The notes under the pieces were generated by a model, which saw only the letters and a list, made by a program, of their open reading frames with translations, was not told the DNA's origin and did not search any database. The position numbers and the translations under genes are program-made. A DNA stretch of 64,000 nt from Polyangiales bacterium (GTDB taxonomy: Bacteria; Myxococcota_A; Polyangia; Polyangiales; Ga0077539). Positions 14,885-33,115 of this stretch are shown here, in pieces; position 1 is the stretch's first letter, and every line of letters begins with the position of its first letter. The DNA lies in NCBI GenBank assembly GCA_044229975.1, contig JBGARZ010000003.1:576001-640000 (forward strand), read 5' to 3'.

Positions 14885-14889
14885 TCCCC

Positions 14890-16002: not shown

Positions 16003-16016
16003 GAGGATCTGCCGAC

Positions 16017-16520
16017 GTGAACGCAACGACGACCCGACAGCCCCGCCGCCGACCCCGCCACTCTTCGCGAGGCGCCGCCTACGCCGAGACCGTGGTGATG
16101 CTCCCATTCTTCGTGGCGGTGTTCTCCTGCATGATGTTCGTGCACAAGGCCTGGAGCACCAAGCTCTACGTGATGGAGGAGAACCGCCATTGCGTGATGA
16201 GCTACGCCTACGAGGCCTGCGAGCGTCGGCCCCCGGGTTGCGCCCATGTGCAGACCGGCACCGACGCCAACCCCGGTGAGCGCCCCGGCGCGCTCAACTC
16301 GTTGCAAAACCTCCTCGGCGGCGCGGGCGGCGCGCTGCTCGGCGGCTTCTTCGGCCAGACCGCCTCGGGTCGGCTCACCCGCACCGTGGCGCGTCCGACG
16401 CTCCTCGGCGGCGGTTCGCTCGGCGCGCTCGCGGCCAACAGCATGGCCTGCAACACCAAGCGCATGACGCCGGCCGACGTCGCGCGGCAGCTCTTCTGCG
16501 GCGTCGTCCCCATCTGCTGA
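16017..16520 (+). CDS. tadE: TadE-like minor pilin
   Basis: SRG^AAYAETVVMLPFF; Cys-rich globular part. Confidence 0.78.
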   Translation: MNATTTRQPRRRPRHSSRGAAYAETVVMLPFFVAVFSCMMFVHKAWSTKLYVMEENRHCVMSYAYEACERRPPGCAHVQTGTDANPGERPGALNSLQNLLGGAGGALLGGFFGQTASGRLTRTVARPTLLGGGSLGALAANSMACNTKRMTPADVARQLFCGVVPIC

Positions 16521-16546
16521 TTGTCCTTGGGAGGAAAGAGGCGCTC

Positions 16547-17488
16547 ATGTTTCGTCGCATCCGACAGCTCCCGCAGCTCACGCGACTCGGCGCGTTCGTG
16601 GTCACGGGCATGCTCGTCACCGCCGTGGTCAGCGTGCGCTCGGCCCGCGCCCAGGTGAACGAGGGCCTGCGCCACCTCGCGCGCCAGCTCATGCCGTACG
16701 CCGAGCAGGGCGTGATGGAGTCCCCCCGCCGCGTGCTGATCAACGGCGAGTCGCTGTACCTCGCCATGGGCACCACCCGCGACGGTGTCGACGCGGTGCT
16801 CGACTACTACGAGGCCCGCTGCGCCCGCAGCTCGGGGCACCTCGCCGAGAGCCTGCGCGGCCTCGACCACGCCACCTTCAACCAGCTCTGGACGCCCGGC
16901 TCGCGCCGCGCCGCCGCCCTCGAGACGGTGCGCTTCGGCGACGCCGACGGCGGCTACGTCGCCTGCCTCGACGTCGGTGAGACGCGCCTCAATCCGCAGG
17001 AGATCCTGCGCCGCGCCGAGTCCATGATCGCCACCGGCGACCTCGCCCGCTACGGCGACCTTCGCTACGCGTACGTCACGCGCAGCACCACCGGCGGCAC
17101 GCGCATCCTCACCGTCGCCACGCAGGGTCAGTTCAACATCCTGCGACTCTTCCCCGAGCAGGGTGACGCGCCCGGCGCCGACATCCCCGGCCTCGCCCGC
17201 TACCCCCAGATGCGGCGCGTGATCTCGGCCTACGAAGACGGCATCCCCAACAAGCTCGGCGTGTACACCGTGCGCGCTCCCGCGGCGCAGGTTCGCACCT
17301 TCTACCGCGACGAGATGGCCCGCCGCGGGTGGACCGTCCTCGACCTCCCGCGCGGCCGTCAGTTGCCGCCCGAGATCGAAGCCCGCCGCGACCGCATGGT
17401 CGCCTTCGAGAAGGGCCAGGAGACCCTCTTCCTGGTCTTCGATCACGCCGACGGCGTGACCTCGATGATGTCCCTCCTCGGTCGCTGA
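16547..17488 (+). CDS. Uncharacterised exported protein within the Tad operon
   Basis: GC3-biased ORF with RBS and N-terminal signal/TM; no recognised motif. Confidence 0.75.
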   Translation: MFRRIRQLPQLTRLGAFVVTGMLVTAVVSVRSARAQVNEGLRHLARQLMPYAEQGVMESPRRVLINGESLYLAMGTTRDGVDAVLDYYEARCARSSGHLAESLRGLDHATFNQLWTPGSRRAAALETVRFGDADGGYVACLDVGETRLNPQEILRRAESMIATGDLARYGDLRYAYVTRSTTGGTRILTVATQGQFNILRLFPEQGDAPGADIPGLARYPQMRRVISAYEDGIPNKLGVYTVRAPAAQVRTFYRDEMARRGWTVLDLPRGRQLPPEIEARRDRMVAFEKGQETLFLVFDHADGVTSMMSLLGR

Positions 17489-17636
17489 TCCCTCATCCTT
17501 CCATCGCACACCGCGACGCCCCCACGAGGCTTTCGAAGCCGTTGTGTCGGGTGATGCGTTCGGCGTAGGCTGCGGCCCGCGAGACCCGGCCGAGGTCGGC
17601 CCCGCGCTGACCCTCCCGCCTCCGGAGACCGATGGG

Positions 17637-18470
17637 ATGAACACCAAGGCGCTCATCATTGCGATCGGTGCAGCAGCCCTCGGGCTGGTGCTGTTGCTCC
17701 TCTACAAACAACGCTTCGAGGCTGAAGCCTCGGGCGGCGTCCCGGTGCGCGTGCTCATCGCGGTGCAGGACATCCCCCTCGGCGCGGCCCTCTCCGAAAA
17801 CATGATGGGCTACCGGCTCATCCCCCAGGCCTACCTGGAAGATCGCTTCATCCGGTACTCGGACGTCCGCCGCATCATCGGCGTGCGCGTCTCCAACGGC
17901 CTGCGCGCCAACCAGACCGTGATGTGGACCGACCTCGCCACCGCCTCCGATGCGCGGCGCGACCTGTCGTCCCTCGTCTCCACGGGCATGCGCGCGATTA
18001 CCGTCCGCGCCGACATCACCAACTCCTTCGGCGGCCTCCTCCGCCCCGGCGACCGCGTCGACGTGCTCGGCACCCTCTCCCGCACCGGCGGCGAGACCGA
18101 CCGCGTGACCATCCCGCTGCTCCAGAACGTCCTCGTGCTCGCTGCTGGTCGTGACACCGGCGGCGAGGCCCAGCGGCAGACGGTCAACGGCACCGCCACC
18201 ACCAACGCGCCGGTGGAGATCTCGCAGATCACCCTAAGCGTCTCGATGGAGGAAGCCCAGCTCCTCACCTACGCCGCCGATCGCGGCGGCGCGGGCGGGC
18301 GGCACACCGGCCTCACCCTGGTGCTCCGTAACCCCGAGGACATCGCGATCCTCGAAGGCGTCCCGGAGACCAACATCGAGGACATCTTCGAGCCGACACG
18401 ACGCGCCAACGTCTCGCGACGCCGACGCCAGGTCATCGAGCGCATCGGCTCGCAGGCCCCCACCCTCTGA
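17637..18470 (+). CDS. cpaB: Flp pilus assembly protein CpaB/RcpC
   Basis: SAF-like VLIAVQDIPLG; GMRAITV...LRPGDRVDVL...LLQNVLVLA. Confidence 0.93.
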   Translation: MNTKALIIAIGAAALGLVLLLLYKQRFEAEASGGVPVRVLIAVQDIPLGAALSENMMGYRLIPQAYLEDRFIRYSDVRRIIGVRVSNGLRANQTVMWTDLATASDARRDLSSLVSTGMRAITVRADITNSFGGLLRPGDRVDVLGTLSRTGGETDRVTIPLLQNVLVLAAGRDTGGEAQRQTVNGTATTNAPVEISQITLSVSMEEAQLLTYAADRGGAGGRHTGLTLVLRNPEDIAILEGVPETNIEDIFEPTRRANVSRRRRQVIERIGSQAPTL

Positions 18471-18490
18471 ACCACCACGCGGTCGCACCC

Positions 18491-19840
18491 ATGAAGTCCC
18501 TTCGAATCGGATCGTTGGCGGTTCTCACCTGCGCGGGTCTTCTCGCGAGCACCACCGCCTTCGCCCAGCAACCCGCCACACCGCCCGCTACGCCGCCCAG
18601 CACGGCGCGCGGCACCGGCCGCGACCTCTCCCTCGCCGTCGGTGAGCAGGTCCTCGTCCCCGCCGATGGCATCCGGCAGTTCTCCGAAGGGACGCCCGGC
18701 ATCGTCGATGTCCGCACCCCCGCCGACGGGCGCAACCTCGTCGTCGTCGGCCAGCGCGCGGGCGCCACAACCCTGCTCCTCATCCGCACCTCTGGCGCGC
18801 AGGAGACCCTCCAGATCACCGTCTTCGCGCGCCGCCCCGAGGCCGTGCAAGCCGAGATCGAGAACCTCCTCGAAGGCTACAACGGTGTGCAGATCCGCCG
18901 CATCGGCGCGCGCCTCTACCTCGAAGGCGGCGTCGCCTCCGATCAGCAGCAGCACCGCGTGCAGCAGATCGCGGCGCTCTACCCCGGCCAGGTCGAGTCG
19001 CTGGTTTCCATCGACGCCACCATCGTCGAGCGGCGCATCAACGTCCGCCTCGACCTCTACTTCGTCGACTTCGCCACCAACAACGGCCGCCAGGTCGGCA
19101 TCGCCTGGCCTTCGTACATCGGCGGCAATCCCCCCAACGCCCAAGGGACCGCGACCATCAACCTCGTCGCCCCGATGGGCATGGGCGGCGTCGGTGAGGG
19201 CGTTCAGCTCGCCCAGGCCATCATCACCAACCAGCCGCTGCCGCGCCTCGACATCGCCAGCAACGGCGGCTGGGCGCGCATCCTCCGCCAGGCGACGGTC
19301 ATCACCGCTAACGGCAACGAGGCCGTCTACCGCAACGGCGGCGAGCTCAACTTCAAGCTCCTCGGCTCCAACGGGTCGGCCTCGCTCGCGACCATCAACT
19401 ACGGCACCAACCTCACCGTTACGCCGCGCTTCGATCCGCAGAGCTCCCGCATCGACATCCGCGTCAACGCGGACATCAGCGACCCCATCGAAAACGGCGG
19501 CGACATGCCGGGGCGCAACATCTCGCACGTCCAGACGCTGGTGAACCTCCAGCTCGGGCAGTCCATCGTGATGTCGGGCTTTCGCTCGCGGCAGCAGTCG
19601 CAGGGCTCCAACGGCCTGCCGGGTCTGCGGCAGATCCCCATCCTCGGTTACCTCTTCGGCTCCGAGCGCAACGCCGAGCAGGAGCACGAGGGCATGATCT
19701 TCATCGTTCCGACGGTGGTCGAAGGGCTCTCGCGCAGCGCACAAGACCGCGTGGCCGAAGCGCTGCGCCAGTACGAGCAGTTCTCCGGGGACGTCGACGA
19801 GGTGCGCCTCTACGAGCCCACCGGAACCCAGTACCGCTGA
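18491..19840 (+). CDS. cpaC: Secretin CpaC/RcpA
   Basis: Signal peptide; YGTNLTVTP, GQSIVMSG, GLPGLRQIPILGYLFG, IFIVPT. Confidence 0.92.
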   Translation: MKSLRIGSLAVLTCAGLLASTTAFAQQPATPPATPPSTARGTGRDLSLAVGEQVLVPADGIRQFSEGTPGIVDVRTPADGRNLVVVGQRAGATTLLLIRTSGAQETLQITVFARRPEAVQAEIENLLEGYNGVQIRRIGARLYLEGGVASDQQQHRVQQIAALYPGQVESLVSIDATIVERRINVRLDLYFVDFATNNGRQVGIAWPSYIGGNPPNAQGTATINLVAPMGMGGVGEGVQLAQAIITNQPLPRLDIASNGGWARILRQATVITANGNEAVYRNGGELNFKLLGSNGSASLATINYGTNLTVTPRFDPQSSRIDIRVNADISDPIENGGDMPGRNISHVQTLVNLQLGQSIVMSGFRSRQQSQGSNGLPGLRQIPILGYLFGSERNAEQEHEGMIFIVPTVVEGLSRSAQDRVAEALRQYEQFSGDVDEVRLYEPTGTQYR

Positions 19841-19868
19841 AGGGCGGAGGAGGAGAGAGGGCATCGCG

Positions 19869-21692
19869 ATGGACCAGGTGCTCCTCTCGATCGAGACCCC
19901 GAACGCGCCGCCCATGACCTACATGGTGCCGTCCGGGGGGGAGATCTCCATCGGGCGCGACGAGACCTGCACCGTGGTGCTGGCCTCGCCGGACATCTCC
20001 CGGCGACACGTCTCGGTGATGATCCAGTCGTCGGCCATCGTGGTGCGCGACTCGTCCTCCAACGGCACGCAGGTGGGGTCGCAGCGGGTGTTCCGCTCGG
20101 AGATTCCGGTGCCCTTCGGGACGCCCATCCTCGTGGGGCCGTACATCATCCGCGTGGTGCGGCAGGCGCCCACCGCCGTGGGCCCGTCGGGCTCGCCGAC
20201 CATCATGCCCGGCCAGGGCCCCGCGCTGCCGCCGTTGCCGGGGAGGCCCAACAACGGTCCGCCACCCCACGCCGCGTCGCAGGGGATGAACGGCCTCGGC
20301 GTCACCGCGCACAGCCCCGACCCGCGACCGCGCACGGTGATGCCCACGCAGATGGGGCAGCAGGCGCCCGCGCCACCGCCCGCCCCGGCCGCAGCCTACC
20401 GACCGGGGGGCGGAACGTCGGGCACGATGCACGTCTCCGTCGAGCTGCGTCGGCGCATCCACCGGATGCTGCTCGACAACCTCGACCTCGCGGTGCTCGA
20501 CCGCTCGAAGATGGGCGACGCGCAGATGCGCCCCAAGGTGCGCGACGCCCTGAAGCGCATCGTCGCGCAGGTCGCCAACGAGATTCCGCCTGGCACCGAC
20601 CAGGACAAGCTGATGCAGGAGATCTCCGACGAGGCGCTCGGCCTCGGTCCCCTGGAGCAGTTCCTCGCCGACGGGACCATCTCGGAAATCATGGTCGTCG
20701 ACCCGCAGACGATCTTCGTCGAGCGGCGCGGCAAGCTGCAACGCGCCGACGCGCGCTTCACCGACGACGAGGCCGTCCGCTCGTGCATCGAGCGCATCGT
20801 CACCCCGCTCGGCCGCCGCATCGACGAGAGCACGCCGCTCGTCGACGCCCGCCTGAAAGACGGCTCGCGCGTCAACGCGGTGATTCGCCCGCTCGCCATC
20901 AAGGGCGCGTGCATCACGATCCGCAAGTTCTCCAAGACCCCGCTCACCCTCCAGAACCTCATCGAGTTTGGTGCGCTCACCGAGCAGATGGCCCGCTTCC
21001 TCACCCGCTCGGTCATCGCCAAGAAGAACATCGTCATCTCGGGCGGCACCGGCTCCGGCAAGACCACCACGCTCAACGTTCTCTCGGCCGCAATCCCCAA
21101 GGAGGAGCGCATCGTCACCATCGAGGACGCCGCCGAGCTCCAGCTCAGCCAGCCCCACGTGGTGTCGCTCGAATCGCGCCCCGCCAACATGGAAGGCAAA
21201 GGCGAGTACACCATCCGCGACCTCGTGAAGAACGCCCTCCGCATGCGCCCCGACCGCATCGTGGTCGGCGAGTGCCGCGGCGGCGAGTGCCTCGACATGC
21301 TCCAGGCCATGAACACCGGCCACGACGGCTCGCTCACCACCACGCACGCCAACTCCCCGCGCGAGGCCATCAACCGCCTCGAAGTGCTCGCGCTCATGAG
21401 CGGCATCGACCTCCCATCGCGCGCCATCCGCGAGCAGATCGCCAACAGCGTTCACGTCGTGGTGCAGCAGTCGCGCTTCTCGGACGGGTCGCGGCGCATC
21501 ACCTCCATCGCCGAGGTCATCGGCATGGATGACAACTTCGAGATCCAGCTCCGGCCCATCTTCGAGTTTCAGCGATCGGGCATCGGGGACGACGGCAAGG
21601 TGCTCGGCGAGTACCGCCCCACCGGCTACCTCCCCTCGTACCTCGACGCCTTCGTCTCCTACGGACTGGTGAAGGGGAAGGACTTCCTATGA
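19869..21692 (+). CDS. cpaF: Tad ATPase CpaF/TadA with N-terminal FHA domain
   Basis: FHA (IGR, SRRH, SSNGT), Pro-rich linker, GGTGSGKTT, TIEDAAEL, LRMRPDRIVVGE, NTGHDG. Confidence 0.95.
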   Translation: MDQVLLSIETPNAPPMTYMVPSGGEISIGRDETCTVVLASPDISRRHVSVMIQSSAIVVRDSSSNGTQVGSQRVFRSEIPVPFGTPILVGPYIIRVVRQAPTAVGPSGSPTIMPGQGPALPPLPGRPNNGPPPHAASQGMNGLGVTAHSPDPRPRTVMPTQMGQQAPAPPPAPAAAYRPGGGTSGTMHVSVELRRRIHRMLLDNLDLAVLDRSKMGDAQMRPKVRDALKRIVAQVANEIPPGTDQDKLMQEISDEALGLGPLEQFLADGTISEIMVVDPQTIFVERRGKLQRADARFTDDEAVRSCIERIVTPLGRRIDESTPLVDARLKDGSRVNAVIRPLAIKGACITIRKFSKTPLTLQNLIEFGALTEQMARFLTRSVIAKKNIVISGGTGSGKTTTLNVLSAAIPKEERIVTIEDAAELQLSQPHVVSLESRPANMEGKGEYTIRDLVKNALRMRPDRIVVGECRGGECLDMLQAMNTGHDGSLTTTHANSPREAINRLEVLALMSGIDLPSRAIREQIANSVHVVVQQSRFSDGSRRITSIAEVIGMDDNFEIQLRPIFEFQRSGIGDDGKVLGEYRPTGYLPSYLDAFVSYGLVKGKDFL

Positions 21693-22582
21693 CCGCCGCG
21701 CCGCAGACGATGCTCATGGGCTGGATCGGCCTGCTGATGTTTCCGCTGGGCTTCGCAGCGGCCATCTACGTGACGCTGACCTTCCCCGACAGCCCGCTGC
21801 ACCAGGCGTACTCCCGCTACGCCAAGCACATCGACGTCGAGCTGCGGTCGATGTTCATCCAGAACCCCACCGGCAAGCAGGTCACCAACTGGCAGCTCGG
21901 CATCATCGCCGCGCTCCTGCTCTTCGAGCCGGCCCACCTCGCCATCATGGGCGTCGCGTCGGGCATCCCCGTCGCGCTCGTCGGCGTCCCCATCACCGCC
22001 ATCGCGCCGAAGATCTGGATCAGCGACGCCCGCGCCAAGCGGCAGCTCGCCATCGAGGCCCAGCTCGACACCTTCCTCCTCGCGCTCGCCAACGCACTCA
22101 AGGCGTCGCCCTCGCTCGGCGATGCGCTCGGCGCCTGCGCCATCCTCATGCGCGCGCCGATGAAGCAGGAGCTGGAGCTCACCATGAAGGAGAACCAGCT
22201 CGGCATGCCCCTCGACACCGCGCTGCTCAACATGGCGACGCGCGTCGGCACCCGCGCGTTCTCGGGCGCGCTCACCACGGTGCTCATCGGGCGGCAGACC
22301 GGCGGTGACCTCCCGAAGATCCTCGAGACGAGCGCCTCGACGCTGCGCGAGATGGCGCGCCTCGAAGGCGTCGTGCGCACCAAGACCGCCGAGGGTCGCG
22401 CGCAGGCGTGGGTGCTCGGGGTGATTCCCCCGATGCTCGTGCTGCTCCTCAACTGGATGGACCCGGAGTGGCTGCGGCCGCTCTCCACCAACTTCATCGG
22501 CTACATCATCTCCAGCATCGCGGTGATCTTCTGGGTGGCGGCCGTGTTCGCCGCGCGGAAGATCCTCGCGGTGGACATCTGA
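21689..22582 (+). CDS. tadB: TadB inner-membrane platform protein
   Basis: T2SSF-like RQTGGDL...TAEGRAQAW. Confidence 0.9.
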   Translation: MTAAPQTMLMGWIGLLMFPLGFAAAIYVTLTFPDSPLHQAYSRYAKHIDVELRSMFIQNPTGKQVTNWQLGIIAALLLFEPAHLAIMGVASGIPVALVGVPITAIAPKIWISDARAKRQLAIEAQLDTFLLALANALKASPSLGDALGACAILMRAPMKQELELTMKENQLGMPLDTALLNMATRVGTRAFSGALTTVLIGRQTGGDLPKILETSASTLREMARLEGVVRTKTAEGRAQAWVLGVIPPMLVLLLNWMDPEWLRPLSTNFIGYIISSIAVIFWVAAVFAARKILAVDI

Positions 22583-22604
22583 GCGCGAAGGGACGCGAGA
22601 CGCG

Positions 22605-23513
22605 ATGACTCCCTCCACAGAACTCCTCGGCTTCGTCGCCCTCGGGCTGCTCGCCCTGGCCGTCGCGACGGTGATCTACCAGTTCGCGCTCACCCCGGCC
22701 GACCTCCAGCCCGACGTCGGACAGAAGGGACTGAAGCGCAAAGCCGTGCTCGAAGAGGAGGGCCTCTTCAACACCATCGAGCCGCTCATGCGCTGGCTCG
22801 CGCGGCGCATCGCGGGCCTCCCCCTCGACGAGACCCGCGACCGCATCAACACCCAGCTCCGTCAGTCGGGCGAGTACCTCGGGCTCACCGCCGACGAGTA
22901 CCTCGCGCTGTGCGTGCTGTCAGCGCTCGGGATGCTCGTGTCGGGCCTCGTCATCGACAAGCTCTCCAACATCGGCGGCATCGTGGTGCTGATGTTCGTG
23001 GGCTTCGGATCGATCCTCCCGCACATGCAGGTGTCGGGTGAGATCGAGCGGCGCTTCAAGCAGGTCAACCGCGGATTGCCGGGCGCCATCGACCTCGTGG
23101 CCCTCACCATGAGCGCGGGCCTCGACTTCCCCGGCGCGCTCCGACAGGTGACCGAGAAGACCGCCGACAAGAGCGACGCCCTCTACGAAGAGCTCACCCG
23201 CATCCTCCAGGAGCTGGAGCTCGGTCGCACCCGCAAGCAGGCGCTCTTGTCGTTCGCGGAGCGCAGCCCGACCGAGTCGGTGCGCGACTTCGTCTCGGCG
23301 GTGGTGCAGGCCGAGGAGAAGGGCAACCCGTTGGCCGAGGTGCTCCAGATCCAGGCGACGATGCTCCGCATGCGGCGCAGCATCGCGGCGGAGGAGAGCG
23401 CCGCGCGCGCGGGCGTGCTGATGATGGGCCCGCTCCTGCTCATCTTCTGCACCATCATGATGATCATCCTCGGGCCGTTCGCGGTGAACATCGCGGCCGG
23501 CAAGGGAATCTGA
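22605..23513 (+). CDS. tadC: TadC inner-membrane platform protein
   Basis: LPGAIDL...AGLDF...VQAEEKGNPLAEVL...AEESAARA. Confidence 0.9.
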   Translation: MTPSTELLGFVALGLLALAVATVIYQFALTPADLQPDVGQKGLKRKAVLEEEGLFNTIEPLMRWLARRIAGLPLDETRDRINTQLRQSGEYLGLTADEYLALCVLSALGMLVSGLVIDKLSNIGGIVVLMFVGFGSILPHMQVSGEIERRFKQVNRGLPGAIDLVALTMSAGLDFPGALRQVTEKTADKSDALYEELTRILQELELGRTRKQALLSFAERSPTESVRDFVSAVVQAEEKGNPLAEVLQIQATMLRMRRSIAAEESAARAGVLMMGPLLLIFCTIMMIILGPFAVNIAAGKGI

Positions 23514-23527
23514 AAGGCTCCGCCGCG

Positions 23528-24421
23528 ATGGCCACCCCGCAGCTCGACGTCTACCTCCCCGACGGCTCGGTGCAGTCGTACCCCCTCACCGAAGAGCGCG
23601 TGGTGGTGGGCACCGCCTCGCGCTGCCTCGTGGTCATCGATCGCCCTGAGGTGGCCCCCGAGCACCTGCTGCTCTCGGCGCGCCCCGACGGCTGCTGGGT
23701 GGCCGTAGCGCGCGGCGTGACGACGCCGACGCTGCTCGACGGCGAGCCCTTCGAGCGCGGCGTGGTGGCGTGGGGACGAGCGCTCACCATCGGCCCGGTG
23801 CGCCTCGGCCTCAACGACGGCACCAAGGTCATCAAGAAGACGGGCAAGGACGGCGAGAAGAAGGAAGAGAAGGTCTCGCCGGTGCTGCTCATCGCGGCGG
23901 CGATCATCATTCCGTTCGCGTTGTACTCGTCGTTCAGCAACAGCAACAACGCGCCGCCCGCGCGCATCGGGACGCAGGCACCGGCGCTGTTCGATGATCC
24001 GCTGGTGCGGCCGTGCACGGCGACCGACCCGACGCTCAACCGCCAGTCGGCCGAGGAGAGCACGCGCGTGGCGCTGTCGAAGGCCGAGCGCATGCCGTTC
24101 CGCATGCAGGATGGCGTGGAGTCGGTGCTGTATTACACGCAGGCCGCGAGCTGCTACACGGCGGCGGGAGACGCGGCGTCGGCCGACCAGGCGTCGCGGC
24201 GGGCGGCGTCGATCAAGAACCGCCTGGAAGATGAGTACCGGGCGCATCGGTTCCGGTTGGAACGCGCGCTGGAGCAGTCGCGGACGGAAGACGCGCTGTT
24301 CGAGGTGCGGATGATCAAGGCGATGGTGAGCCACCGGCGCGGGCCGTATCAGGACGCGCTCGTGGCGCTGGAGCGGCAGCTCACGCTCCGGCTCGACCAG
24401 GCGCAGGCGGCGCAGCGCTGA
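23528..24421 (+). CDS. FHA-like domain, TM segment and helical periplasmic region
   Basis: Degenerate FHA (VVGT..C.V..PEVAPEH), single TM; last gene of the Tad operon. Confidence 0.7.
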   Translation: MATPQLDVYLPDGSVQSYPLTEERVVVGTASRCLVVIDRPEVAPEHLLLSARPDGCWVAVARGVTTPTLLDGEPFERGVVAWGRALTIGPVRLGLNDGTKVIKKTGKDGEKKEEKVSPVLLIAAAIIIPFALYSSFSNSNNAPPARIGTQAPALFDDPLVRPCTATDPTLNRQSAEESTRVALSKAERMPFRMQDGVESVLYYTQAASCYTAAGDAASADQASRRAASIKNRLEDEYRAHRFRLERALEQSRTEDALFEVRMIKAMVSHRRGPYQDALVALERQLTLRLDQAQAAQR

Positions 24422-24431
24422 CGGGGTTGAG

Positions 24432-24648
24432 GGCTGGGGTTCGGGCGTCGGCCCTCACCCCAGGCAATAACAAGCAGGCGCCCCGGACATCGTCCGGGGC
24501 TTACGAACGGGAACTCGTTCGACCTGGGGATTGCGGTCGCGACTCTCTGCCAGAGGGTCCGTCGAGCTCCGGTCCGAAAGCCCCGGACAATGTCCGGGGC
24601 GCCTGCTTGTTATTGCCTGGGGTGAGGGCCAACGCCCGAACCCCAGCC
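24432..24648. repeat. 217-bp palindromic element with 71-bp inverted arms (REPIN/MITE-like)
   Basis: 24432-24502 is the reverse complement of 24578-24648 at 69/71 positions; each arm holds its own hairpin gccccggaca-N-tgtccggggc (one mismatch in the left arm). Confidence 0.92.
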
Positions 24649-24664
24649 ACGGACGCGAAGTGGT

Positions 24665-24868
24665 GACCGCAACGCTTGCGACGCCCCACTCGGGCGCCTG
24701 GATGGCGGTTGCAACCGTTGCAACGCCCGCCAAGGCGGCCTGGAAGGCGTCGCAACGGTTGTAAGCCCCGACAAGGCCGGGGAGTGGGCGCTTGCAACGG
24801 TTGCAACGGCCGACAAGGCGGCCTGGAGGGCGCTGCAACGGTTGTAATGGCCGCCAAGGCCGAGGAGT
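24665..24868. repeat. Five-unit 41/42-bp tandem array with palindromic core GCAAC-NN-TTGYRA
   Basis: GCAAC cores start at 24669, 24711, 24752, 24794 and 24835 (spacing 42, 41, 42, 41). Confidence 0.88.
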
Positions 24869-25567
24869 TCAGCCGACGGGCGGGGGATCGACGGGCGGGG
24901 GCTCCGGGACGTCGTCAGACACCCCGACAGCGCGGTGCTGCTGGGCGAGGTCGTCGAAGACGAGCGGGAGCAGCTCCAGCCGATTGGCGTGGCGGAGCAC
25001 ACCGGTGATGAGCGCCTTGTTGGCGGTGTACACGGCGAGCCAGTCTTCGCGCGCGTCGACGATCTCGGGGCGGAGCATCGCGGCGTCGACCTTCTTGCTG
25101 CGCGACTCGGCTTCGAGCGCCGTGAGGGCGACAGCGTGGGCGCGAAACTCCGCGAGCCACTCCTGGTGGTTGGGCAGGGCGGCTCCGTGATGCTCGATGC
25201 GCGCGGCGACGTGCTTCACGAGCGCGATGAGCTTGAGCAGACGGCGGCGCGCGGCGACGGAGGGAACCTCGCGCTCGAAGAAGCTCGCGAGCGGAACGGG
25301 CGCTCCTTTGACGGACTCGACGTACTTGCCGAAGCGGACGACCGAGTCGCGCGCGTCGGCGACGGGGTCGCCGCCGGTCGCGGTGGGCGCAGGCTGGCGG
25401 TCGAGCACGAGCTTCATGGCGGCGTCGGCCGTCGCCTGCGAGGTGCCGGCGAACTTCACGGCGCCGTCGAGCGCGGGGACGAGCCCGAGGCAGACGGCGT
25501 CGAACTGCTCGCGCGCGAAGGCGCCGTAGATCTGGGTCTCCCGCGGGTCGATGTACGAATCACTCAT
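24869..25567 (-). CDS. Uncharacterised alpha-helical protein (232 aa) directly upstream of the array
   Basis: MSDSYIDPRETQIYG...; AAGGAG RBS; GC3 bias; Pro-rich C-terminus. Confidence 0.8.
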   Translation of the reverse strand: MSDSYIDPRETQIYGAFAREQFDAVCLGLVPALDGAVKFAGTSQATADAAMKLVLDRQPAPTATGGDPVADARDSVVRFGKYVESVKGAPVPLASFFEREVPSVAARRRLLKLIALVKHVAARIEHHGAALPNHQEWLAEFRAHAVALTALEAESRSKKVDAAMLRPEIVDAREDWLAVYTANKALITGVLRHANRLELLPLVFDDLAQQHRAVGVSDDVPEPPPVDPPPVG

Positions 25568-25668
25568 GGGCGTTGCTCCTTCGGGCGAGGGGCGTCGCGG
25601 GTGATCCGCAGCGCCGATTGCCGCGGAGGGTTCATCGGTCGGAGTGACGGGCGGCTGAAGGGGCGCCG

Positions 25669-25684
25669 AACATTTCGAGTGCCA
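25669..25684 (-). promoter_or_regulatory. Possible sigma-54-like promoter for the helical gene
   Basis: Minus strand TGGCACTCGAAATGTT (GG-N10-GT, imperfect -12). Confidence 0.3.
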
Positions 25685-25780
25685 CTCTTCAACGGCTGGG
25701 TGGCTATCGAGGAGAAGCGCAGGATATCGTCCCGTCACTTTGTGCGGCATCGAGTAGCGGTGCCGGGAGAGACGACGACG

Positions 25781-26941
25781 ATGATCACGCGAACGATCCC
25801 GGCCCTGTGGGCGTGTCTGCTGCTCGGCTGCTCCGATGGGGCCACGACGCCGACGCCGGGCGACGCCGGTGTCCAACCGGACGACGCGGCGGTCGCCGTC
25901 GACGTGGGCGGTGGGCCCGAAGACTCGGGGTGCGTGGAGTCCGACACCGAGTTCTGCACGCGGGTGTCCGCGGTCTGCGGGAGCGTCGCGGCGCCGGATG
26001 CGTGCGGCCGGTCGCGAGTCGTCACCTGCGGCCAATGCACCGAGTCGAAGGTGTGCAGCTCGACGTTTCAGTGCGTCTCGGTCGTCCGCTGGCAACGCAC
26101 GGGTGGGGGCCTCTCGTTCGTCTCCTACGAGGGTGTGGTGGGGTCGGGCGCGAACACCTTCGCGCTCCAGGGCAACGGCACGCTGGAGCGACTCGGCCCG
26201 ATGCTGACCGACCGGACCCGCGCCGCGATGTTGCCGCCCGAGAGCAACGGGTTGTTCGGTCGCGGATCGACCTTCTACGCGTTCGGGTACGGCTACGTCA
26301 CCCGCTACACCGGGATGACTGCCTCGCGGGTGGGCAACATCGTGGGGGAGGTAAAGGCTCTCAACGGGAGCGGCACCGAAGACCTGTGGGCCGCGATGCT
26401 GACGGGCGGCTTGCGCCATTGGGACGGCACTGCCTGGTCCTACAACAGCGACATCGACCTCCCCGGCGGCGCCAACTCCGACGTCCGCGGGCTCTACAGC
26501 TTCAGCGCCTCCGACGCCTGGGCGGTGGGCACCAACAGCGGGGCGTTTCACTGGGACGGCACCGCGTGGGTGCGCACGCCGACGGGGCTCGACAGCGTCA
26601 CGCTGCTCGGCGTGTGGGGCAGCGCGCCCGGCGACGTCTGGGCGGTCGGTGGCATCAGCGTCCTCAGCCGAACGCAGGGCTACCTGATCCGCTATCGGAG
26701 CGGCCGGTGGTCGCGGTCCGAGGTTCCCTCCATCACGGCCGTGCGAGCGATCCACGGCCTCTCGGCGTCCGACGTCTGGGCCGTCGGCGACGATGGGCTC
26801 ATCCTCCATTTCAACGGCACGCGTTGGGAAAACCAGTCGATTGCGGGCACGACCGAAGACTTCTACGGCGTCTGGGCGCAGGCCGCCGACGACGTCTGGG
26901 CCGTCGGCTCCGGCGGCATCATCGCGCACTACGGCCTGTAG
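25781..26941 (+). CDS. Lipoprotein with Cys-rich region and DVWAVG beta-propeller repeats
   Basis: LLLGC lipobox; repeated DAWAVG/DVWAVG...H(W/F)(D/N)GT.W units. Confidence 0.85.
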   Translation: MITRTIPALWACLLLGCSDGATTPTPGDAGVQPDDAAVAVDVGGGPEDSGCVESDTEFCTRVSAVCGSVAAPDACGRSRVVTCGQCTESKVCSSTFQCVSVVRWQRTGGGLSFVSYEGVVGSGANTFALQGNGTLERLGPMLTDRTRAAMLPPESNGLFGRGSTFYAFGYGYVTRYTGMTASRVGNIVGEVKALNGSGTEDLWAAMLTGGLRHWDGTAWSYNSDIDLPGGANSDVRGLYSFSASDAWAVGTNSGAFHWDGTAWVRTPTGLDSVTLLGVWGSAPGDVWAVGGISVLSRTQGYLIRYRSGRWSRSEVPSITAVRAIHGLSASDVWAVGDDGLILHFNGTRWENQSIAGTTEDFYGVWAQAADDVWAVGSGGIIAHYGL

Positions 26942-26958
26942 CGAGGGGCCGACTCCGC

Positions 26959-28074
26959 TCAGCGCGGGCTGCTCGCGCAGCGGAACCCGATGTGGACGCC
27001 GTCACTCCAGTCGTAGTTCGCGATCCGCGAGCTCCCATGGACCTCGGTGGCGCGAACGTCTCGCCAAGAGCCGCCACGGATCGTGCGTTGGACCCTGTCA
27101 CCAGTGTTGCCGACGATGCAGAGGGGATTTCGTCGGCGGAAGGCACCGCCCCAGCAGTCGACACCGTAGACGCTGAACTCGTCGGCGGCCCACTCCGCGG
27201 CGCCTCCGACCAGGTCGTAGAACCCGCGCGAGGCGGGATAGGCGCCCGCGCTGCACGGTGACGTCCGTCTGGTCGGGGTGCTCCAGCAGAGCTGTGAGCC
27301 GGGCGGCTCTTCTCCCCATGGATAGGACAGGCTCGCGCCTGCCGTGGCTGCCAGCTCCAACTCCGCCTCGGTGGGCAGGCGCCCACCGTCCCAGACGCAA
27401 AACGCCTGAGACAGCGCCCACCCGAGTGAGTTCATGGCGTAGTCCTCGTGAGACCCCGGCGTGGTCGACCAACCAGCGCTCCGTCCGGGGTCGTGGACGC
27501 TGCCGCGGTACGGCAGCTCGACTCCCCCCGGGTAGTGGACGACTGGTCCTGGCGCCGGGTGCCCCGCGTCCCAGAACCGCCGAAACCGCGCGACCGTCAC
27601 CTCGTGAGTGTCGAGGTAGTAGTCGCTGACGCTGATGCGATCGAGGGCGGGCGATGCACCGTAGGCCAGGCTTTCACGCCCCATCGAAAAGGTTCCGCCG
27701 ACGACGCGCAACCGCCCGCACCCGACGACTGGCGTTGGCTCACAGCTCCGCTGCGACGACGGGTCACGCGCTGCGCAGGCGCCACCACCGCACGCTTCAC
27801 CCGCGTCGCAGGTCCGACCGCAGGCGCCGCAGTTGGCGCCGTCAGTCATGAGGTCGACGCACGCGTCGGCGCACGACGTGAGCCCAGTTGAGCAGGACGC
27901 CGCGTCAGTGCTTCCCGCATCCGTGGCCCCGTCGTTGAGAGTTATCGCGGACCCTTGGTCATCGCGCACTCCGTCCGTGACGCCTGGCACGTCCATTGAC
28001 GGACGAGTGTCAGACGCGCAGCCGACGAACATCGTGAGGACGGTCGACGCGCACCCCACTACGGCAACCTTCAT
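26959..28074 (-). CDS. FGE-sulfatase (SUMF1/C-type-lectin fold) lipoprotein; start uncertain
   Basis: HEVTV, CVWDGGRLPTEAE, YPWG, RGGSW, IGFRC; MFVGC lipobox. Confidence 0.88.
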   Translation of the reverse strand: MKVAVVGCASTVLTMFVGCASDTRPSMDVPGVTDGVRDDQGSAITLNDGATDAGSTDAASCSTGLTSCADACVDLMTDGANCGACGRTCDAGEACGGGACAARDPSSQRSCEPTPVVGCGRLRVVGGTFSMGRESLAYGASPALDRISVSDYYLDTHEVTVARFRRFWDAGHPAPGPVVHYPGGVELPYRGSVHDPGRSAGWSTTPGSHEDYAMNSLGWALSQAFCVWDGGRLPTEAELELAATAGASLSYPWGEEPPGSQLCWSTPTRRTSPCSAGAYPASRGFYDLVGGAAEWAADEFSVYGVDCWGGAFRRRNPLCIVGNTGDRVQRTIRGGSWRDVRATEVHGSSRIANYDWSDGVHIGFRCASSPR

Positions 28075-28176
28075 GGCGTCCACGGTAGCCTCCATTGGTC
28101 CAACACCACCAGTGCCTGCTGCCGCGCGTCTCCGAAGGCGCTCGAACACTTCCAGTACAACGCCGACTTCGAGTCT

Positions 28177-28839
28177 TCAGCCGCCCAGCTTCGCGAGGAG
28201 AGCGCGCAGGCGCGCCACCTCGGCCTCGGCGCTCTCGGCGCGCTCCGCCGCCGTAGGCACGAGCGACTCACCCCGCGCACCGGTGGCGAGCCGCAGCCGC
28301 GGTTGCCCCTGCTCGTTCACTGCGCGCAGCCAACAGCCCAACGAGCGGGACGCCACGCGGTCACCCAGGGAGGTCTCCACGCGCACCATCCGCCCACGCA
28401 CCCGCCGCCAGACCTGCCAGCGCATCCGCTTGCGCGAGCGCGCCGTGGCCCACGGGTCGAACACCACCAGCTCCCGCGCCCCCATGGCCTCGTAGTCGGG
28501 CGGCGCGGCCTCGTAGTCCTTCTTCCAGTCCTCGCCGACGACCTCCAACGCGAAGCTCGGCGCGTGGCCCTCCCACACCTTCCACGAGCTCACCGCGGGG
28601 ACGTCCTGCGCCACCCCGTCGACCACGTAGACGTCGGGCGCGCGGTGCACCCCGGCGTCTCCAGGCACCCAGTAGAAGAACTGGTCGGCCCCCGCGTGCG
28701 CCACCCTCCCCTGCGAGGCCAGCCATTGCGCCAGCAGCGGGCGCAACAGCTCCGCGATGAGGCGCTGGAGTTCGTGCTCCGCGGTGTCATCGCTCTCTGG
28801 GTAGCGGACCGCGTCCCACCGCTTCGCCGCCGCGACCAT
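28177..28839 (-). CDS. Uma2/DUF820-family PD-(D/E)XK endonuclease-fold protein
   Basis: E...H, APDVYVV, PSFALEVV, DY, ELVVFDP; ERAE coiled tail. Confidence 0.88.
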   Translation of the reverse strand: MVAAAKRWDAVRYPESDDTAEHELQRLIAELLRPLLAQWLASQGRVAHAGADQFFYWVPGDAGVHRAPDVYVVDGVAQDVPAVSSWKVWEGHAPSFALEVVGEDWKKDYEAAPPDYEAMGARELVVFDPWATARSRKRMRWQVWRRVRGRMVRVETSLGDRVASRSLGCWLRAVNEQGQPRLRLATGARGESLVPTAAERAESAEAEVARLRALLAKLGG

Positions 28840-28903
28840 GACTCCCGATGTATCACACGGCGCCCGGACCGACGACGGCGCGGTGGTAGAGTCGGCGGCG
28901 CCA

Positions 28904-29320
28904 ATGCCGCAACGGGATGCATTTCATCAAGCGGTCAAGGACGCCCTCGAACGTGATGGCTGGGTGGTGACGCACGACCCGCTTGCCCTGCGCTTTGGAT
29001 CGCGCCGACTCTTTGTCGACCTCGGCGCCGAGGCACCCATGGCGGCCGAGAAGGGTGGGCGCAAGATCGCGGTGGAGGTGAAGAGCTTCCTCGGGGAGTC
29101 CGAGATGAGGGAGCTCGAACAGGCGCTCGGCCAGTACGCGCTCTACCGTTTCGTCCTCGATCGCGACGACCCGGACCGGGCGCTGTTTCTTGCGGTCGCC
29201 GGAGCGACATACCAGCGCCTGTTCGACGACGCGGACGGGCGTGACCTGGTGGCTGCGCAGGGCGTGAAGCTGCTGGTCTTCGACGTCGAGAAGGGATTGG
29301 TCACCCGATGGATCGAGTGA
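28904..29320 (+). CDS. xisH: XisH-family protein
   Basis: MPQRDAFHQAVKDALERDGW.VTHDP...DLGAE...KIAVEVKSF...ALGQY. Confidence 0.9.
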   Translation: MPQRDAFHQAVKDALERDGWVVTHDPLALRFGSRRLFVDLGAEAPMAAEKGGRKIAVEVKSFLGESEMRELEQALGQYALYRFVLDRDDPDRALFLAVAGATYQRLFDDADGRDLVAAQGVKLLVFDVEKGLVTRWIE

Positions 29321-29643
29321 ACGAATGGCGCGCGCTCATCAAGGAGATCATCCGTGAGTACGCGGTGGTCGACCCGTCGAACAGTGACGTCACCGTGGAG
29401 ACGGTGTTCGACGACGAGCACGGGCACTACGAGCTGGTGCACGTCGGCTGGGAGGCCGGGAGGCGCGTGCACGGGGCGGTGATCCACGTCGACATCCGCG
29501 ACGGGCGGATCTGGGTACAGCACGATGGTACGGAGGAGGGCATCACGACGCGGTTGCTCGCCGCGGGCGTCACGCCGGGGGAGATCGTGATGGGGTTTCA
29601 CCCGCCGACGCAGCGTCACCTGACGCGCTACGCGACGGGGTGA
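29308..29643 (+). CDS. xisI: XisI-family protein
   Basis: HY.LV.VGW....RVHG..IHVDI.DG.IWVQHDGTE.GI...L...GV...IV.GF; 13-nt overlap with xisH. Confidence 0.9.
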   Translation: MDRVNEWRALIKEIIREYAVVDPSNSDVTVETVFDDEHGHYELVHVGWEAGRRVHGAVIHVDIRDGRIWVQHDGTEEGITTRLLAAGVTPGEIVMGFHPPTQRHLTRYATG

Positions 29644-29794
29644 ACGACTGCGCGGGAAGGTCGATGGGTTGAGGTGTGGGAGCGCCCGCTCACCTCGGCC
29701 CAACGCGCCTCACCGTCGCGCAGCGACGGGGCGACCGCGACGCTTCGGTCGATCGTCGGCCGTGGTCACCCGTCGATGAAGACCGTCGATGCCG

Positions 29795-31072
29795 TCATGG
29801 GCGACGTCGGCTGCGGACGCAGCGGAAGCCGAGCCCGCCGCCCGACGCACTCGCCGGAACGCGCCCCCGCGCCGCCCCGTGCACCATGGCGTAGTTGAGC
29901 TCCTGAAACCGTCCCCCCCGGATGACGTTCACGAAAAAGCCGCCGCTCCGAGAGGCCGCGGAGAAGGGATCGACGCGCGGACGGCCACCCCACGAGCTCG
30001 GCGCCGCGTACTCGATGAACCCGCTGGCAGTGTACTCGGAGACGTTCCCGGCCAGGTCGTAGATGCCGCCGATGGGGGGAAGGCTTCCGACTTGGAGGAA
30101 GCGATAGCCCAGCGTCGTTTCGCCTTCGCAGACGATTCCGAACTGCGCCACCACACATTCGGCGCCCGCGAGTTCGTTGCCCCAAGGGTAGGCCCGCGGC
30201 GACGGGAGGCCTTCAATCGGCCACGCCCTCGCCACATACTCCCACTCCGACTCGGTGGGCAGACGGCCGCCGTCCCATACGCAGAAGCACTGGGCAGTCG
30301 CGATGTCGAGGCAGACCAGGGGGAGCAGTTCGCGCCCCATCGGCACGCGAGACCAGTCGCAGCCGTCTGCCTGGTTGGTCCCCGGTTCGGTCACTACGTC
30401 ATGCTTCCCACGAAACCACGGTACGGGACCGCCCGGGTAGGCGACGTCTCCAGGGAGGTCGGGATGGCCCGCGTCCCAGAAGCGCCGGAAGCGCCCCACG
30501 GTCACTTCGTACGCATCGATCGCGAAGTCGCTCACGGTGATCGACGGCTGCACCGGCGCCGCGTAGGTGAAGTCCGGCAGCGTCGCGTCGCCCTGCGCGA
30601 AGGTGCCGCCGGTGACCTCGACCAGGCCGCAGCCACGGCCGCCTGCTCCCGGGCAGCTCCGCTGCTCACCGATGCATGAACCCCTGATGCACGACTGCCG
30701 GGCAGTGCACGCCTGTCCGCATCCGCCACAGTTCATCGGGTCCGTCACGAACGCCACGCAAGCCGTGCCGCAGCGGGCCTCGCCGACCGGACAGCGCCCG
30801 TTGTCGGCGACGACGTCGACAATCCGCGGGACGTCGGGCGCCACGTCGACTCCCATCGCGATGTCGACCGCGAGCACATCGGGCTGCCCCCGGTCGGGCG
30901 TCGGGGCGATGGCGTCGAATCCCGCGTCGAGGTCGTCGTCGAAGCCCACGTCGATGGCGACGGACACCTCGACGTCCGGTGACGACGGGACATCCGAAGC
31001 GGGCGTCAGGGTCGCCTCGCATCCGAGGTGGAGGAGCCCCATCGCGACGGTAGAGAAAACGAGAGCGCGCAT
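29795..31072 (-). CDS. Second FGE-sulfatase-fold lipoprotein
   Basis: LHLGC lipobox; YEVTV, CVWDGGRLPTESEWE, YPWG, LAGNVSE, LGFRC. Confidence 0.88.
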   Translation of the reverse strand: MRALVFSTVAMGLLHLGCEATLTPASDVPSSPDVEVSVAIDVGFDDDLDAGFDAIAPTPDRGQPDVLAVDIAMGVDVAPDVPRIVDVVADNGRCPVGEARCGTACVAFVTDPMNCGGCGQACTARQSCIRGSCIGEQRSCPGAGGRGCGLVEVTGGTFAQGDATLPDFTYAAPVQPSITVSDFAIDAYEVTVGRFRRFWDAGHPDLPGDVAYPGGPVPWFRGKHDVVTEPGTNQADGCDWSRVPMGRELLPLVCLDIATAQCFCVWDGGRLPTESEWEYVARAWPIEGLPSPRAYPWGNELAGAECVVAQFGIVCEGETTLGYRFLQVGSLPPIGGIYDLAGNVSEYTASGFIEYAAPSSWGGRPRVDPFSAASRSGGFFVNVIRGGRFQELNYAMVHGAARGRVPASASGGGLGFRCVRSRRRP

Positions 31073-31389
31073 CGGACGTCGAGCCTTTCCGTGGGGCGCT
31101 GATCGAGACCGATCGCCCCGAGACGATTAGAGCCGCGCCGAGAAGAAGGGTCAAGCGAGCCCAGCGGATCGCTGGTGGTGGTGTTGGTGATGGGCGCCGG
31201 AGGGAGCCGTCACTCCGGAAGGCGACCGTCCACGCCCGCGGTGCGCGTCCCTCCGGGTAAGGACGCGCACCGCAGGCGTCGTCGATCGCTACGCCAAAGC
31301 CCCCGATTCCCGTCCCCGCTACACGCCCCGCACCTGCCCGGTATATAAACCCCGCCGTGACCCGCCCTGGGACAGCGACGCGACAGCCG

Positions 31390-32139
31390 ATGGTGCTGCT
31401 CCTCCTGCACCTCTCGCTCACGTCGTGCGCCGGTTCACGCAATTCACTCCGCCCGCCGCCCGACCACGACCCCATGAACGACGTTCAGGGTCAGCAGCTC
31501 TTCGACCAGGGCATCTCCCTCGCGCGCTCCGGCGACCTCGTCCGCGCCGAGCAGTACCTCGCCGCCAGCATCACCCGCGGCATGCGCGAAGACCGCGTGC
31601 TCCCGCTGCTGCTGGAGGTGTGCGTCGCAGCGTCGCGATTCCGCGCGGCGGTGTCGTACGCCGAGCCGTATCTCCAGCGGCACCCGCAGGCGTGGCGGCT
31701 GCGTTTCCTCGTCGCGACCATCCGCGTCGGGCTCGACGACCGGGCTGCCGCGAGGCGCGACCTCGAGGCCGTGCTCGCCGCGAAGGAAGACCACTCCGAG
31801 GCCCACTTCGTCCTCGCGACCGTGCTCCGTGAACACTTCAACGACCCGGTCGGCGCTGACCCGCACTACCGGCGTTACCTCGCGATCGAGCCCTCGGGCG
31901 CGCACGCAGACGAGGCCCGCGCAGGGCTCCTACAGCAGGTGAATCATGATCCCGAAAGAGGTGTACGAGGAGACGCTGCTGTCGTTCCTGGCGCCGGTGA
32001 GGCCCTTCCTGGACGACCCGAAGGTGTCGGAGATCATGATCAACGGACCGGATCAGATCTTCATCGAGAAGGCGGGCAAGCTCACCCTGACGGAGGCGCG
32101 CTTCCCCAGCATGGAGGCCCTCAACGCCTGTCTCCGTAA
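31390..32139 (+). CDS. TPR lipoprotein (possible pilotin-like role); 3' end overlaps the next gene
   Basis: LSLTSC lipobox; TPR-like helices ending HYRRYLAIEPSGAHADEAR. Confidence 0.7.
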   Translation: MVLLLLHLSLTSCAGSRNSLRPPPDHDPMNDVQGQQLFDQGISLARSGDLVRAEQYLAASITRGMREDRVLPLLLEVCVAASRFRAAVSYAEPYLQRHPQAWRLRFLVATIRVGLDDRAAARRDLEAVLAAKEDHSEAHFVLATVLREHFNDPVGADPHYRRYLAIEPSGAHADEARAGLLQQVNHDPERGVRGDAAVVPGAGEALPGRPEGVGDHDQRTGSDLHREGGQAHPDGGALPQHGGPQRLSP

Positions 32140-33115
32140 CATCGCCCAGTACGTCGGGAAGATGGTCAACGAGGACAACCCCATCCTCGAAGCGCGACTG
32201 CCCGACGGCTCCCGCATCGAGGCCGTGATCCCGCCCGCCGCGCCCGACGGCCCCGACGTCTCCATACGCCGCTTCTTCAAGGAGACGCTCACCGTCCAGC
32301 GCCTCGTCGACTTCGGGTCGCTCACCGCCGAGGCCGCCCAGGTGCTCGAGTGCCTCGTCGTCATGAAGCAGAACGTCGTCGTCGCCGGCGGAACCGGCTC
32401 CGGCAAGACGTCCATGCTCAACGCGCTGAGCTCGTTCATCCCCGACGGGGAGCGCATCGTCATCATCGAGGACAGCCGCGAGGTGCAGCTCCAGCGGCAG
32501 CACGTCGTTCAGCTCGAAGCGCGACCGGGCGACGCCAAGGGGAAAGGGCGCGTCACCATCCGCGACCTCTTCCGCGCGACGCTGCGTATGCGACCCGACC
32601 GCATCGTGGTGGGCGAGATTCGCGGCGGCGAGGCGCTCGACCTCGTGCAGGCGATGACCTCGGGTCACGGCGGCTGCATCACCACCGTGCACGCGACCTA
32701 TCCGCACGACACACTGACCCGGTTGGAGACCATGTCCCTCATGAGCGACGTCGAGCTCCCGCTGTCCGCGCTCCGCGTGCAGCTCGGGAGCGCCATCAAC
32801 CTCGTGGTGCAGACCTCCCGACTCCAAGACGGCAGCCGCAAGGTGACGCACGTCTCCGAGGTTCGCGGGTACAGCCAGGACAAGGGCTTCCAGATCGTCG
32901 ACCTCTTCGTGCGGCGCTTTCACGGCCGCGACGAGGGGGGCAACCTCATCAGCAGCTTCGACCCCACGGGCGAGCTTCCGCTCTGCACGGACATGGTCCA
33001 CTCGTACGGCATGGCGTTTCCCGAGGCGGTGTACGAGGCGGCCCGCATCCGCGCCGAGCAGGGCCCCGACGACGCACCCACCGACTACGGGCAGGTCGGA
33101 GGCCATCACGGATGA
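31946..33115 (+). CDS. cpaF: Second CpaF/TadA-family ATPase (no FHA)
   Basis: SEIMING, GGTGSGKTS, IEDSREV, LRMRPDRIVVGE, SGHGG. Confidence 0.93.
   Translation: MIPKEVYEETLLSFLAPVRPFLDDPKVSEIMINGPDQIFIEKAGKLTLTEARFPSMEALNACLRNIAQYVGKMVNEDNPILEARLPDGSRIEAVIPPAAPDGPDVSIRRFFKETLTVQRLVDFGSLTAEAAQVLECLVVMKQNVVVAGGTGSGKTSMLNALSSFIPDGERIVIIEDSREVQLQRQHVVQLEARPGDAKGKGRVTIRDLFRATLRMRPDRIVVGEIRGGEALDLVQAMTSGHGGCITTVHATYPHDTLTRLETMSLMSDVELPLSALRVQLGSAINLVVQTSRLQDGSRKVTHVSEVRGYSQDKGFQIVDLFVRRFHGRDEGGNLISSFDPTGELPLCTDMVHSYGMAFPEAVYEAARIRAEQGPDDAPTDYGQVGGHHG

Follow-up and report, generated by a model that had tools for sequence, protein, structure and literature searches.

The window, the whole stretch of 64,000 nucleotides that was analysed, is a GC-rich chromosome segment of the Myxococcota type. 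A Tad/Flp pilus operon (14857-24421 and 31357-35306), with genes for a secretin, for two ATPases of the CpaF type, one of them fused to FHA, and for FHA/YscD-like proteins, is split there by an insertion, in which a Uma2 endonuclease-like gene and a XisH/XisI pair lie at 28180-29643. The subject of this work is a gene within the insertion, whose product is here named P0001, together with the repeat array that adjoins it. The features of the locus are as follows.

24422 to 31316, no strand assigned: 6.9-kb strain-specific insertion in the Tad pilus operon, carrying the module and Uma2, XisH/XisI and FGE-sulfatase-like genes (comparison with relatives)
24432 to 24648, no strand: long nested inverted repeat with 93-nt arms (90%), dispersed and MITE/REP-like, not part of the module
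24662 to 24868, no strand: phased array of five units, period 41/42, with an 83-bp higher-order repeat (TRF, core positions)
24667 to 24681, no strand: dyad A of unit 1, distal and degenerate (core positions)
24709 to 24723, no strand: dyad A of unit 2, a perfect palindrome (core pattern)
24750 to 24764, no strand: dyad A of unit 3 (core pattern)
24792 to 24806, no strand: dyad A of unit 4, a perfect palindrome (core pattern)
24833 to 24847, no strand: dyad A of unit 5, gene-proximal (core pattern)
24731 to 24743, no strand: dyad B, which includes CAAGGC; further copies at 24689-24701, 24772-24784, 24814-24826 and 24855-24867
24869 to 25567, minus strand: gene for P0001, 232 aa, predicted all-alpha with a low-confidence Pro-rich tail (ORF, structure and homodimer models)
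25576 to 25581, minus strand: AAGGAG, Shine-Dalgarno-like, ahead of the ATG (direct reading of the sequence)

A preliminary description of this DNA had reported a 232-aa minus-strand ORF at 24869-25567 whose stop codon abuts five repeat units, with cores recurring at 42, 41, 42 and 41 bp and an 83-bp higher-order repeat, and these readings were borne out. The array begins at the stop codon of the P0001 gene. The 15-bp dyad-A cores start at 24667, 24709, 24750, 24792 and 24833, which gives exactly that spacing, and the copies at 24709 and 24792 are perfect palindromes. TRF returned a period of 42 (4.6 copies, 73% matches) and a period of 83 (2.0 copies, 85%). The core pattern matched 6 times in the window against 0.12 expected, and none of 100 shuffles reached 6. 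Across the 10-Mb genome, 310 sites scored at least 12 bits, and only 4 phased pairs were found, all of them within the window array. The CAAGGC motif, which had been taken for a second conserved block, is present in units 2-5, but it is the left arm of a second dyad rather than a separate block. This dyad B (C-NN-GG-NNN-CC-NN-G) is centred 20-21 bp from dyad A, and each unit thus contains two dyads. Dyad B was also considered as a family-wide feature and was not retained, as the test was non-discriminating (20/28 versus 16.6 expected).

In three of the four same-genus relatives the insertion site is empty: the FHA gene is joined directly to the TPR gene, and the Tad operon continues from 24421 straight to about 31317-31337. 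DNA similarity to same-genus genomes spans about 24662-25570 at other loci, whereas the match to the Tad operon stops at 24421. One related contig could be aligned from 24662 to 25641, where 67 letters differ and there is one gap, but its loose end realigns and it was therefore not used for boundaries. The neighbours of the gene and array differ from locus to locus in the relatives. Gene and array match elsewhere as one block and the site is empty in relatives, which shows that they move as a unit and supports the gene-plus-array module suggested in the preliminary description. Family searches of the window genes revealed no integrase in the 6.9-kb insertion. The possibility that the array is part of the convergent Tad operon was rejected, because no core site lies near the FHA genes of four relatives. 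The inverted repeat at 24432-24648 has 4 full copies and many partial matches of ~30 nt in this genome and dozens in relatives, and repeats of this type are absent beside the arrays of P0001 homologues. No ParA gene was found among the window neighbours, nor among the 50 scanned of the 63 listed homologue neighbours; about 8 of these 50, a count made without a control, are of defence or mobile type (HsdM, Uma2, SduA, AAA_21, IS200).

The AlphaFold2 model of P0001 (pLDDT 89) contains helices only, with a 60-residue helix at 134-193 and a low-confidence tail. No match was found in Pfam, PHROGs, NCBIfam, PADLOC or PDB sequences, and Foldseek returned 0 matches at E≤0.001 against PDB and viral structures. 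The best VIA-align hit had a Z of 10.8 (rmsd 2.2, 82 residues aligned), which is under the mark for helical bundles; 2rld, an S23/Avd-like four-helix bundle, matched the models of both P0001 and DUF6261 with a Z of 8.3 and is taken as a lead only. The structure prediction and fold search that had been suggested thus gave an all-helical model and no fold match. When modelled as a homodimer, P0001 scored 0.54 versus 0.00 for the best control, with 100% contact agreement between runs and a pLDDT of 80; the score mark used is reached by 20 of 30 solved homodimers and by 1 of 23 monomers. P0001 is hence predicted to be a symmetric homodimer, with an interface formed by residues 30-43 and 178-195 at one end of the long helix. 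By helix rise alone, a dimer arranged end to end could span ~15 nm, which is near the 14.3 nm of 42 bp. Basic residues R73, R78, R173, K184 and R196 are conserved family-wide; R107-R109 and K112 are conserved in the close clade, and the R107-K112 patch falls below 60% conservation in the wider family. Of 40 close members, 39 carry a net negative charge, and neither a recognisable DNA-binding motif nor a known DNA-binding fold emerged from the family and fold searches.

The homologue searches yielded 43 proteins, 209 clusters at 50% identity and 99 loci; no relatives were present among the viral contigs, phages or plasmids searched. A Planctomycetota-labelled MAG (L026) encodes a close homologue with the same array type, which may reflect transfer or mis-binning. 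As a PWM count (21/32) is circular for the positives, the linkage of gene and array was counted by sequence-independent autocorrelation, after removal of near-duplicates and of loci with <300 nt of flank. Of the 32 close homologues, 25 had a 41-42-bp period on the downstream side; upstream it was seen in 1 of 37, and among 999 random genes 11 had it downstream. Distant homologues showed it in 15/44 cases downstream and 6/34 upstream, and these counts overstate independence because the homologues are related by descent (13 Sorangium rows). Arrays were found in many subclades of a quick tree of P0001. They are absent in 7 of the 32 close homologues, in most distant ones and in one conserved paralogue subfamily; the lack of arrays beside homologues, named beforehand as evidence against a module, thus applies to a minority of the close ones and to most of the distant ones. 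Two same-genus genomes without a close-clade gene (92% and 91% complete) had no phased core pair, and the three with the gene had one. These results show that gene and array are linked across Myxococcota. This genome has 6 P0001-family genes, 4 of which have arrays (two downstream, two upstream). An array-less paralogue, L104 (G000 C11:255143-255838), has a long secreted-looking gene close behind it; in the P0001 family about one match of similar strength is seen per genome, possibly a domesticated copy.

In most close homologues the array starts 23-34 nt past the stop codon. The homologue spacings of 41-43 bp (n = 78) comprise 16 at 41, 61 at 42 and 1 at 43, with a mean of ~41.8 bp, in support of the four-turn phasing first proposed from the window. 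The number of units is held at about five while the linkers drift, same-position units across genomes being 53% alike and units within one array 52%. Spacings of 31 and 52-54 bp were dropped as whole-turn steps, their source being a doubled core 10-12 bp off that is shared by descent. The doubled dyad-A core, offset by 10-12 bp, occurs in the gene-proximal unit of L011, L013, L019-L021, L026, L028, L067, L072 and L074, and persists in the solo copies L174 and L176 too.

Repeats of type III toxin-antitoxin systems are on a 35-55-nt scale, and in REPIN-RAYT systems one gene is linked to its own palindromic repeats, which also occur singly at other sites of the genome. P0001 lacks a HUH/Y1 transposase domain (no Y1_Tnp match, all-helical model), and REPIN-RAYT repeats are dispersed in many copies, whereas here there is one phased cluster in the genome, with 1-2 solo copies in some relatives. 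With type III systems (ToxIN, CptIN, TenpIN) the module has in common one gene with a short repeat array in cognate pairs (PMC5086642). The P0001 array differs in being downstream, palindromic, degenerate and without a terminator, although some distant paralogues have upstream arrays, and P0001 has no ToxN, CptN or TenpN match in Pfam or PADLOC. In its geometry the module parallels sopC/SopB of the F plasmid (type Ia ParABS; PMC3177203), where tandem 43-45-bp units with a short inverted repeat lie beside the gene of a dimeric protein; the sopC units are 43 bp, or four helical turns, with a 16-bp inverted repeat each. The window likewise has tandem 41/42-bp units with a 15-bp dyad directly after the stop codon. 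In contrast, P0001 shows no sequence relationship to ParB and its model lacks strands, and no ParA/SopA gene was seen among the neighbours scanned. The P0001 module is chromosomal and was not found on plasmids, a genome holds many different pairs, each unit has two dyads, and arrays occur on either side. TIGR-Tas also combines a small dimeric protein with an array of two conserved blocks per unit; its units are 36 nt with two independent variable spacers (PMC12045711), whereas those of the P0001 array are 41-42 nt with short linkers that mirror each other, a symmetric consensus and no phage match. The P0001 module is found in cellular myxobacteria rather than phages, and for the TIGR-Tas Nop domain there was no Pfam match in P0001, the fold searches returning generic helical bundles only. 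We conclude that the module is a member of none of the sopC/SopB, type III toxin-antitoxin, TIGR-Tas and REPIN-RAYT systems. No description of the gene-array pairing was found in the openly available literature searched.

In our model, to which we give an even chance, dimers of P0001 occupy the phased dyads on double-stranded DNA and assemble there into an ordered complex that works for the module itself. The locus would then be a stand-alone mobile two-part module, in which the gene of an all-helical protein is paired with an array of five units, each a double palindrome, at intervals of four turns. Two-fold symmetric P0001 dimers would bind the dyads on one face of the double-stranded DNA, P0001 rather than a host factor being the putative binder, and the loaded dimers might assemble into an ordered nucleoprotein filament, or wrap as is the case on sopC for SopB, which binds its repeats and stabilises the replicon. 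Such a complex may serve the upkeep of the module, i.e., its maintenance, autoregulation or spread, a role proposed because no partner gene is conserved.

A DNA platform and a 3′ RNA processed into units had both been offered in the preliminary description. If the array acts as RNA, it would be transcribed, as a 3′ UTR or on its own, and fold into long hairpins that P0001 binds or cuts into ~42-nt units, in the manner of type III antitoxin arrays or of TIGR arrays, which are processed into unit-length RNAs. The start of the array so close to the stop codon and the conserved unit number are in keeping with this, as are the stable predicted fold of the window array (z -6.4) and a within-unit complementarity slightly above permutation in 2 of 6 tests (p 0.019 and 0.008). 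However, palindrome arrays of any kind fold well, and the folding energy shows no strand preference (mean z -6.4 sense and -6.3 antisense over 19 arrays). In one assembly, two loci (L058 and L059) have gene and promoter 96% identical over 754 nt, and one of the two has the array behind its stop codon, its homologue at the other locus being upstream of the gene and inverted; the upstream arrays of L035 and L079 also match each other in inverted orientation. Among 11 genus-level arrays no unit-to-unit pairing register beat the cross-genome permutation (p 0.12-0.99). In 12 arrays of the Polyangiaceae type almost every register did so, which is attributed to a lineage-wide change of both arms rather than to one fold: both dyad arms change together by lineage, from CAA/TTG to CAG/CTG. 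The array gave no Rfam match at gathering score, no terminator pattern was found at it, and no phage match was found to it. The switching of side and orientation, together with the lack of register-specific covariation, favours a double-stranded DNA site over an RNA, and we consider the RNA reading unlikely.

With a DNA site preferred, it has to be asked whether the adjacent gene acts on the array. Five solo arrays of the same type (L174-L176, L178 and L179) lie beside unrelated genes in four related genomes; these genomes carry a P0001-type gene elsewhere, and none within about 2 kb of the array. One of them, L174, is relic-like: a stop codon preceded by 47 nt of coding tail is still present there, with an identity of 82%. 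In Sorangium cellulosum So ce56 there are two solo copies besides the gene-linked array. Two further arrays, in G008, lie at contig ends and are left out of the count of solo copies. Occurrence beside unrelated genes throughout the genome had been named beforehand as evidence against a module; the window array is unique in its genome, and such copies were seen in these four relatives. The solo arrays fit trans-acting sites, relics or independent mobility.

Beyond this family, the intergenic non-overlapping tandem repeats of this genome peak at 41-44 bp (51 arrays). Within 1.5 kb of 22 of the 51 lie genes of seven unknown families (Ala-rich, with Pro-rich tails and no Pfam match), a share that is not an unbiased rate because the families were first picked by array proximity; the other 29 have no such helical gene within 1.5 kb. 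Among helical-family genes found by HMM, a set that leaves out the array-bearing seeds by construction, 1 of 10 passed the array threshold, and a second has its array inside a mis-called start. Only 2 of 17 consensus rows from arrays beside other helical families are palindromic at p<0.01. Array sequences differ between paralogues within one genome, and unrelated repeat sequences beside different helical families have the 41-44-bp period in common, 43 being common in sister modules. The invariant across the helical-family arrays is thus the period, not the palindromes. The likeness of several solo 41-44-bp arrays to gene-linked ones, at 70-90%, is confined to the array, and some of them occur as inverted pairs. 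Related 42/43-bp arrays, partly gene-linked, partly solo and some in inverted pairs, lie at G000 C6:6161, C32:37949, C32:665623, C32:713138, C34:261790 and C34:420930. An intergenic peak at 53/54 bp was rejected as a five-turn version of the module, since it is a separate single dispersed repeat family (G000 C26:70463-72492, C28:43541-44338 and ~20 more loci, often as inverted pairs), whose longest copies (10-18 units) flank a DUF6261-like gene and a weak family-III gene.

DUF6261 (PF19775) resembles P0001 in being stand-alone, all-helical in models, of similar size and with the same helix order, and the central F-x-P/F-P-x-G turn aligns. By TRF, 42-44-bp arrays lie beside 16 of the 29 DUF6261 loci examined in the phylum, with array sequences unrelated to those of P0001. 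HHalign of P0001 against DUF6261 gave a 10.5-11.2% probability (E 0.003), in register over 112-134 columns, versus ≤0.6% for reversed controls; narrower alignments gave 0.5-0.6%, out of register. PF19775 was not matched above the Pfam cut-off by P0001 or by 30 distant homologues, it had 0 matches in the genome, and the Atlas score of 0.88 is below the Atlas lead threshold. These results are at most suggestive of kinship between P0001 and DUF6261. One genome of the phylum (G170; L144, L157 and L168) has 20 DUF6261 matches.

The solo copies, the likeness of solo to gene-linked 41-44-bp arrays over the array only, with its inverted pairs, and the relic-like tail of L174 might also mean that another enzyme, or recombination, spreads the arrays as REP/MITE-like repeats, which the helical gene marks or attracts without acting on them, or that solo arrays are relics of gene loss. 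This seems quite unlikely to us, as the position at the stop codon and the period are kept across Myxococcota families while the linkers drift, unrelated repeats beside different helical families have the period in common, and the window array occurs once in its genome. It is improbable that the array is a phased platform for a host factor, be it a nucleoid protein or a regulator, by which the gene is controlled or silenced, and that the role of the helical protein lies elsewhere. The DNA-level evidence is equal to that for P0001 binding, and an acidic protein with no known DNA-binding fold would suit such a division of labour; but the difference of array sequences among paralogues of one genome is hard to square with one factor, and a genome-wide comparison with cores of other spacer lengths showed no enrichment of isolated cores. 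Finally, a degenerate coding repeat of 14-residue units (a readthrough extension or a small ORF) is largely refuted and highly improbable: 42 is divisible by three, the linker conservation has a 3-nt rhythm, and on the strand of the gene no frame of the three is closed within the window array, since the 41/42 alternation, described earlier as breaking any reading frame, puts no stops in them, but 16 of the 78 spacings are 41 bp, 16 of 23 homologue arrays change frame internally, the array survives inversion and relocation, and period 43 is common in sister modules. As no frame is kept among orthologues, the array is argued to be non-coding, as first proposed. We conclude that the array: i) tolerates either side of the gene and either orientation, ii) moves as a unit with the gene, and iii) has no conserved frame.

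Binding of P0001 dimers to the phased dyads thus remains our preferred reading. A wider proposal, which we regard as rather unlikely, is that a superfamily of rod-shaped helical dimers (the P0001 family, DUF6261 and at least 5 more families in the genome) constitutes new selfish protein-DNA modules. Each protein would polymerise on its own four-turn array, and through this complex the module would be duplicated, inverted and spread, as would solo arrays in trans, with no known transposase or recombinase fold involved; a genome would hold at least 20 orthogonal pairs.

The findings point to a class of protein-plus-repeat modules that is abundant in Myxococcota and not yet described, with ~20 in this genome, in which the four-turn period is fixed and the sequence is free. 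If it is true that each protein reads its own array, the modules would represent a new architecture for DNA binding and offer a natural library of protein-DNA pairs that are orthogonal to one another; the marked 41-44-bp peak of intergenic repeats in these genomes would be accounted for as well.
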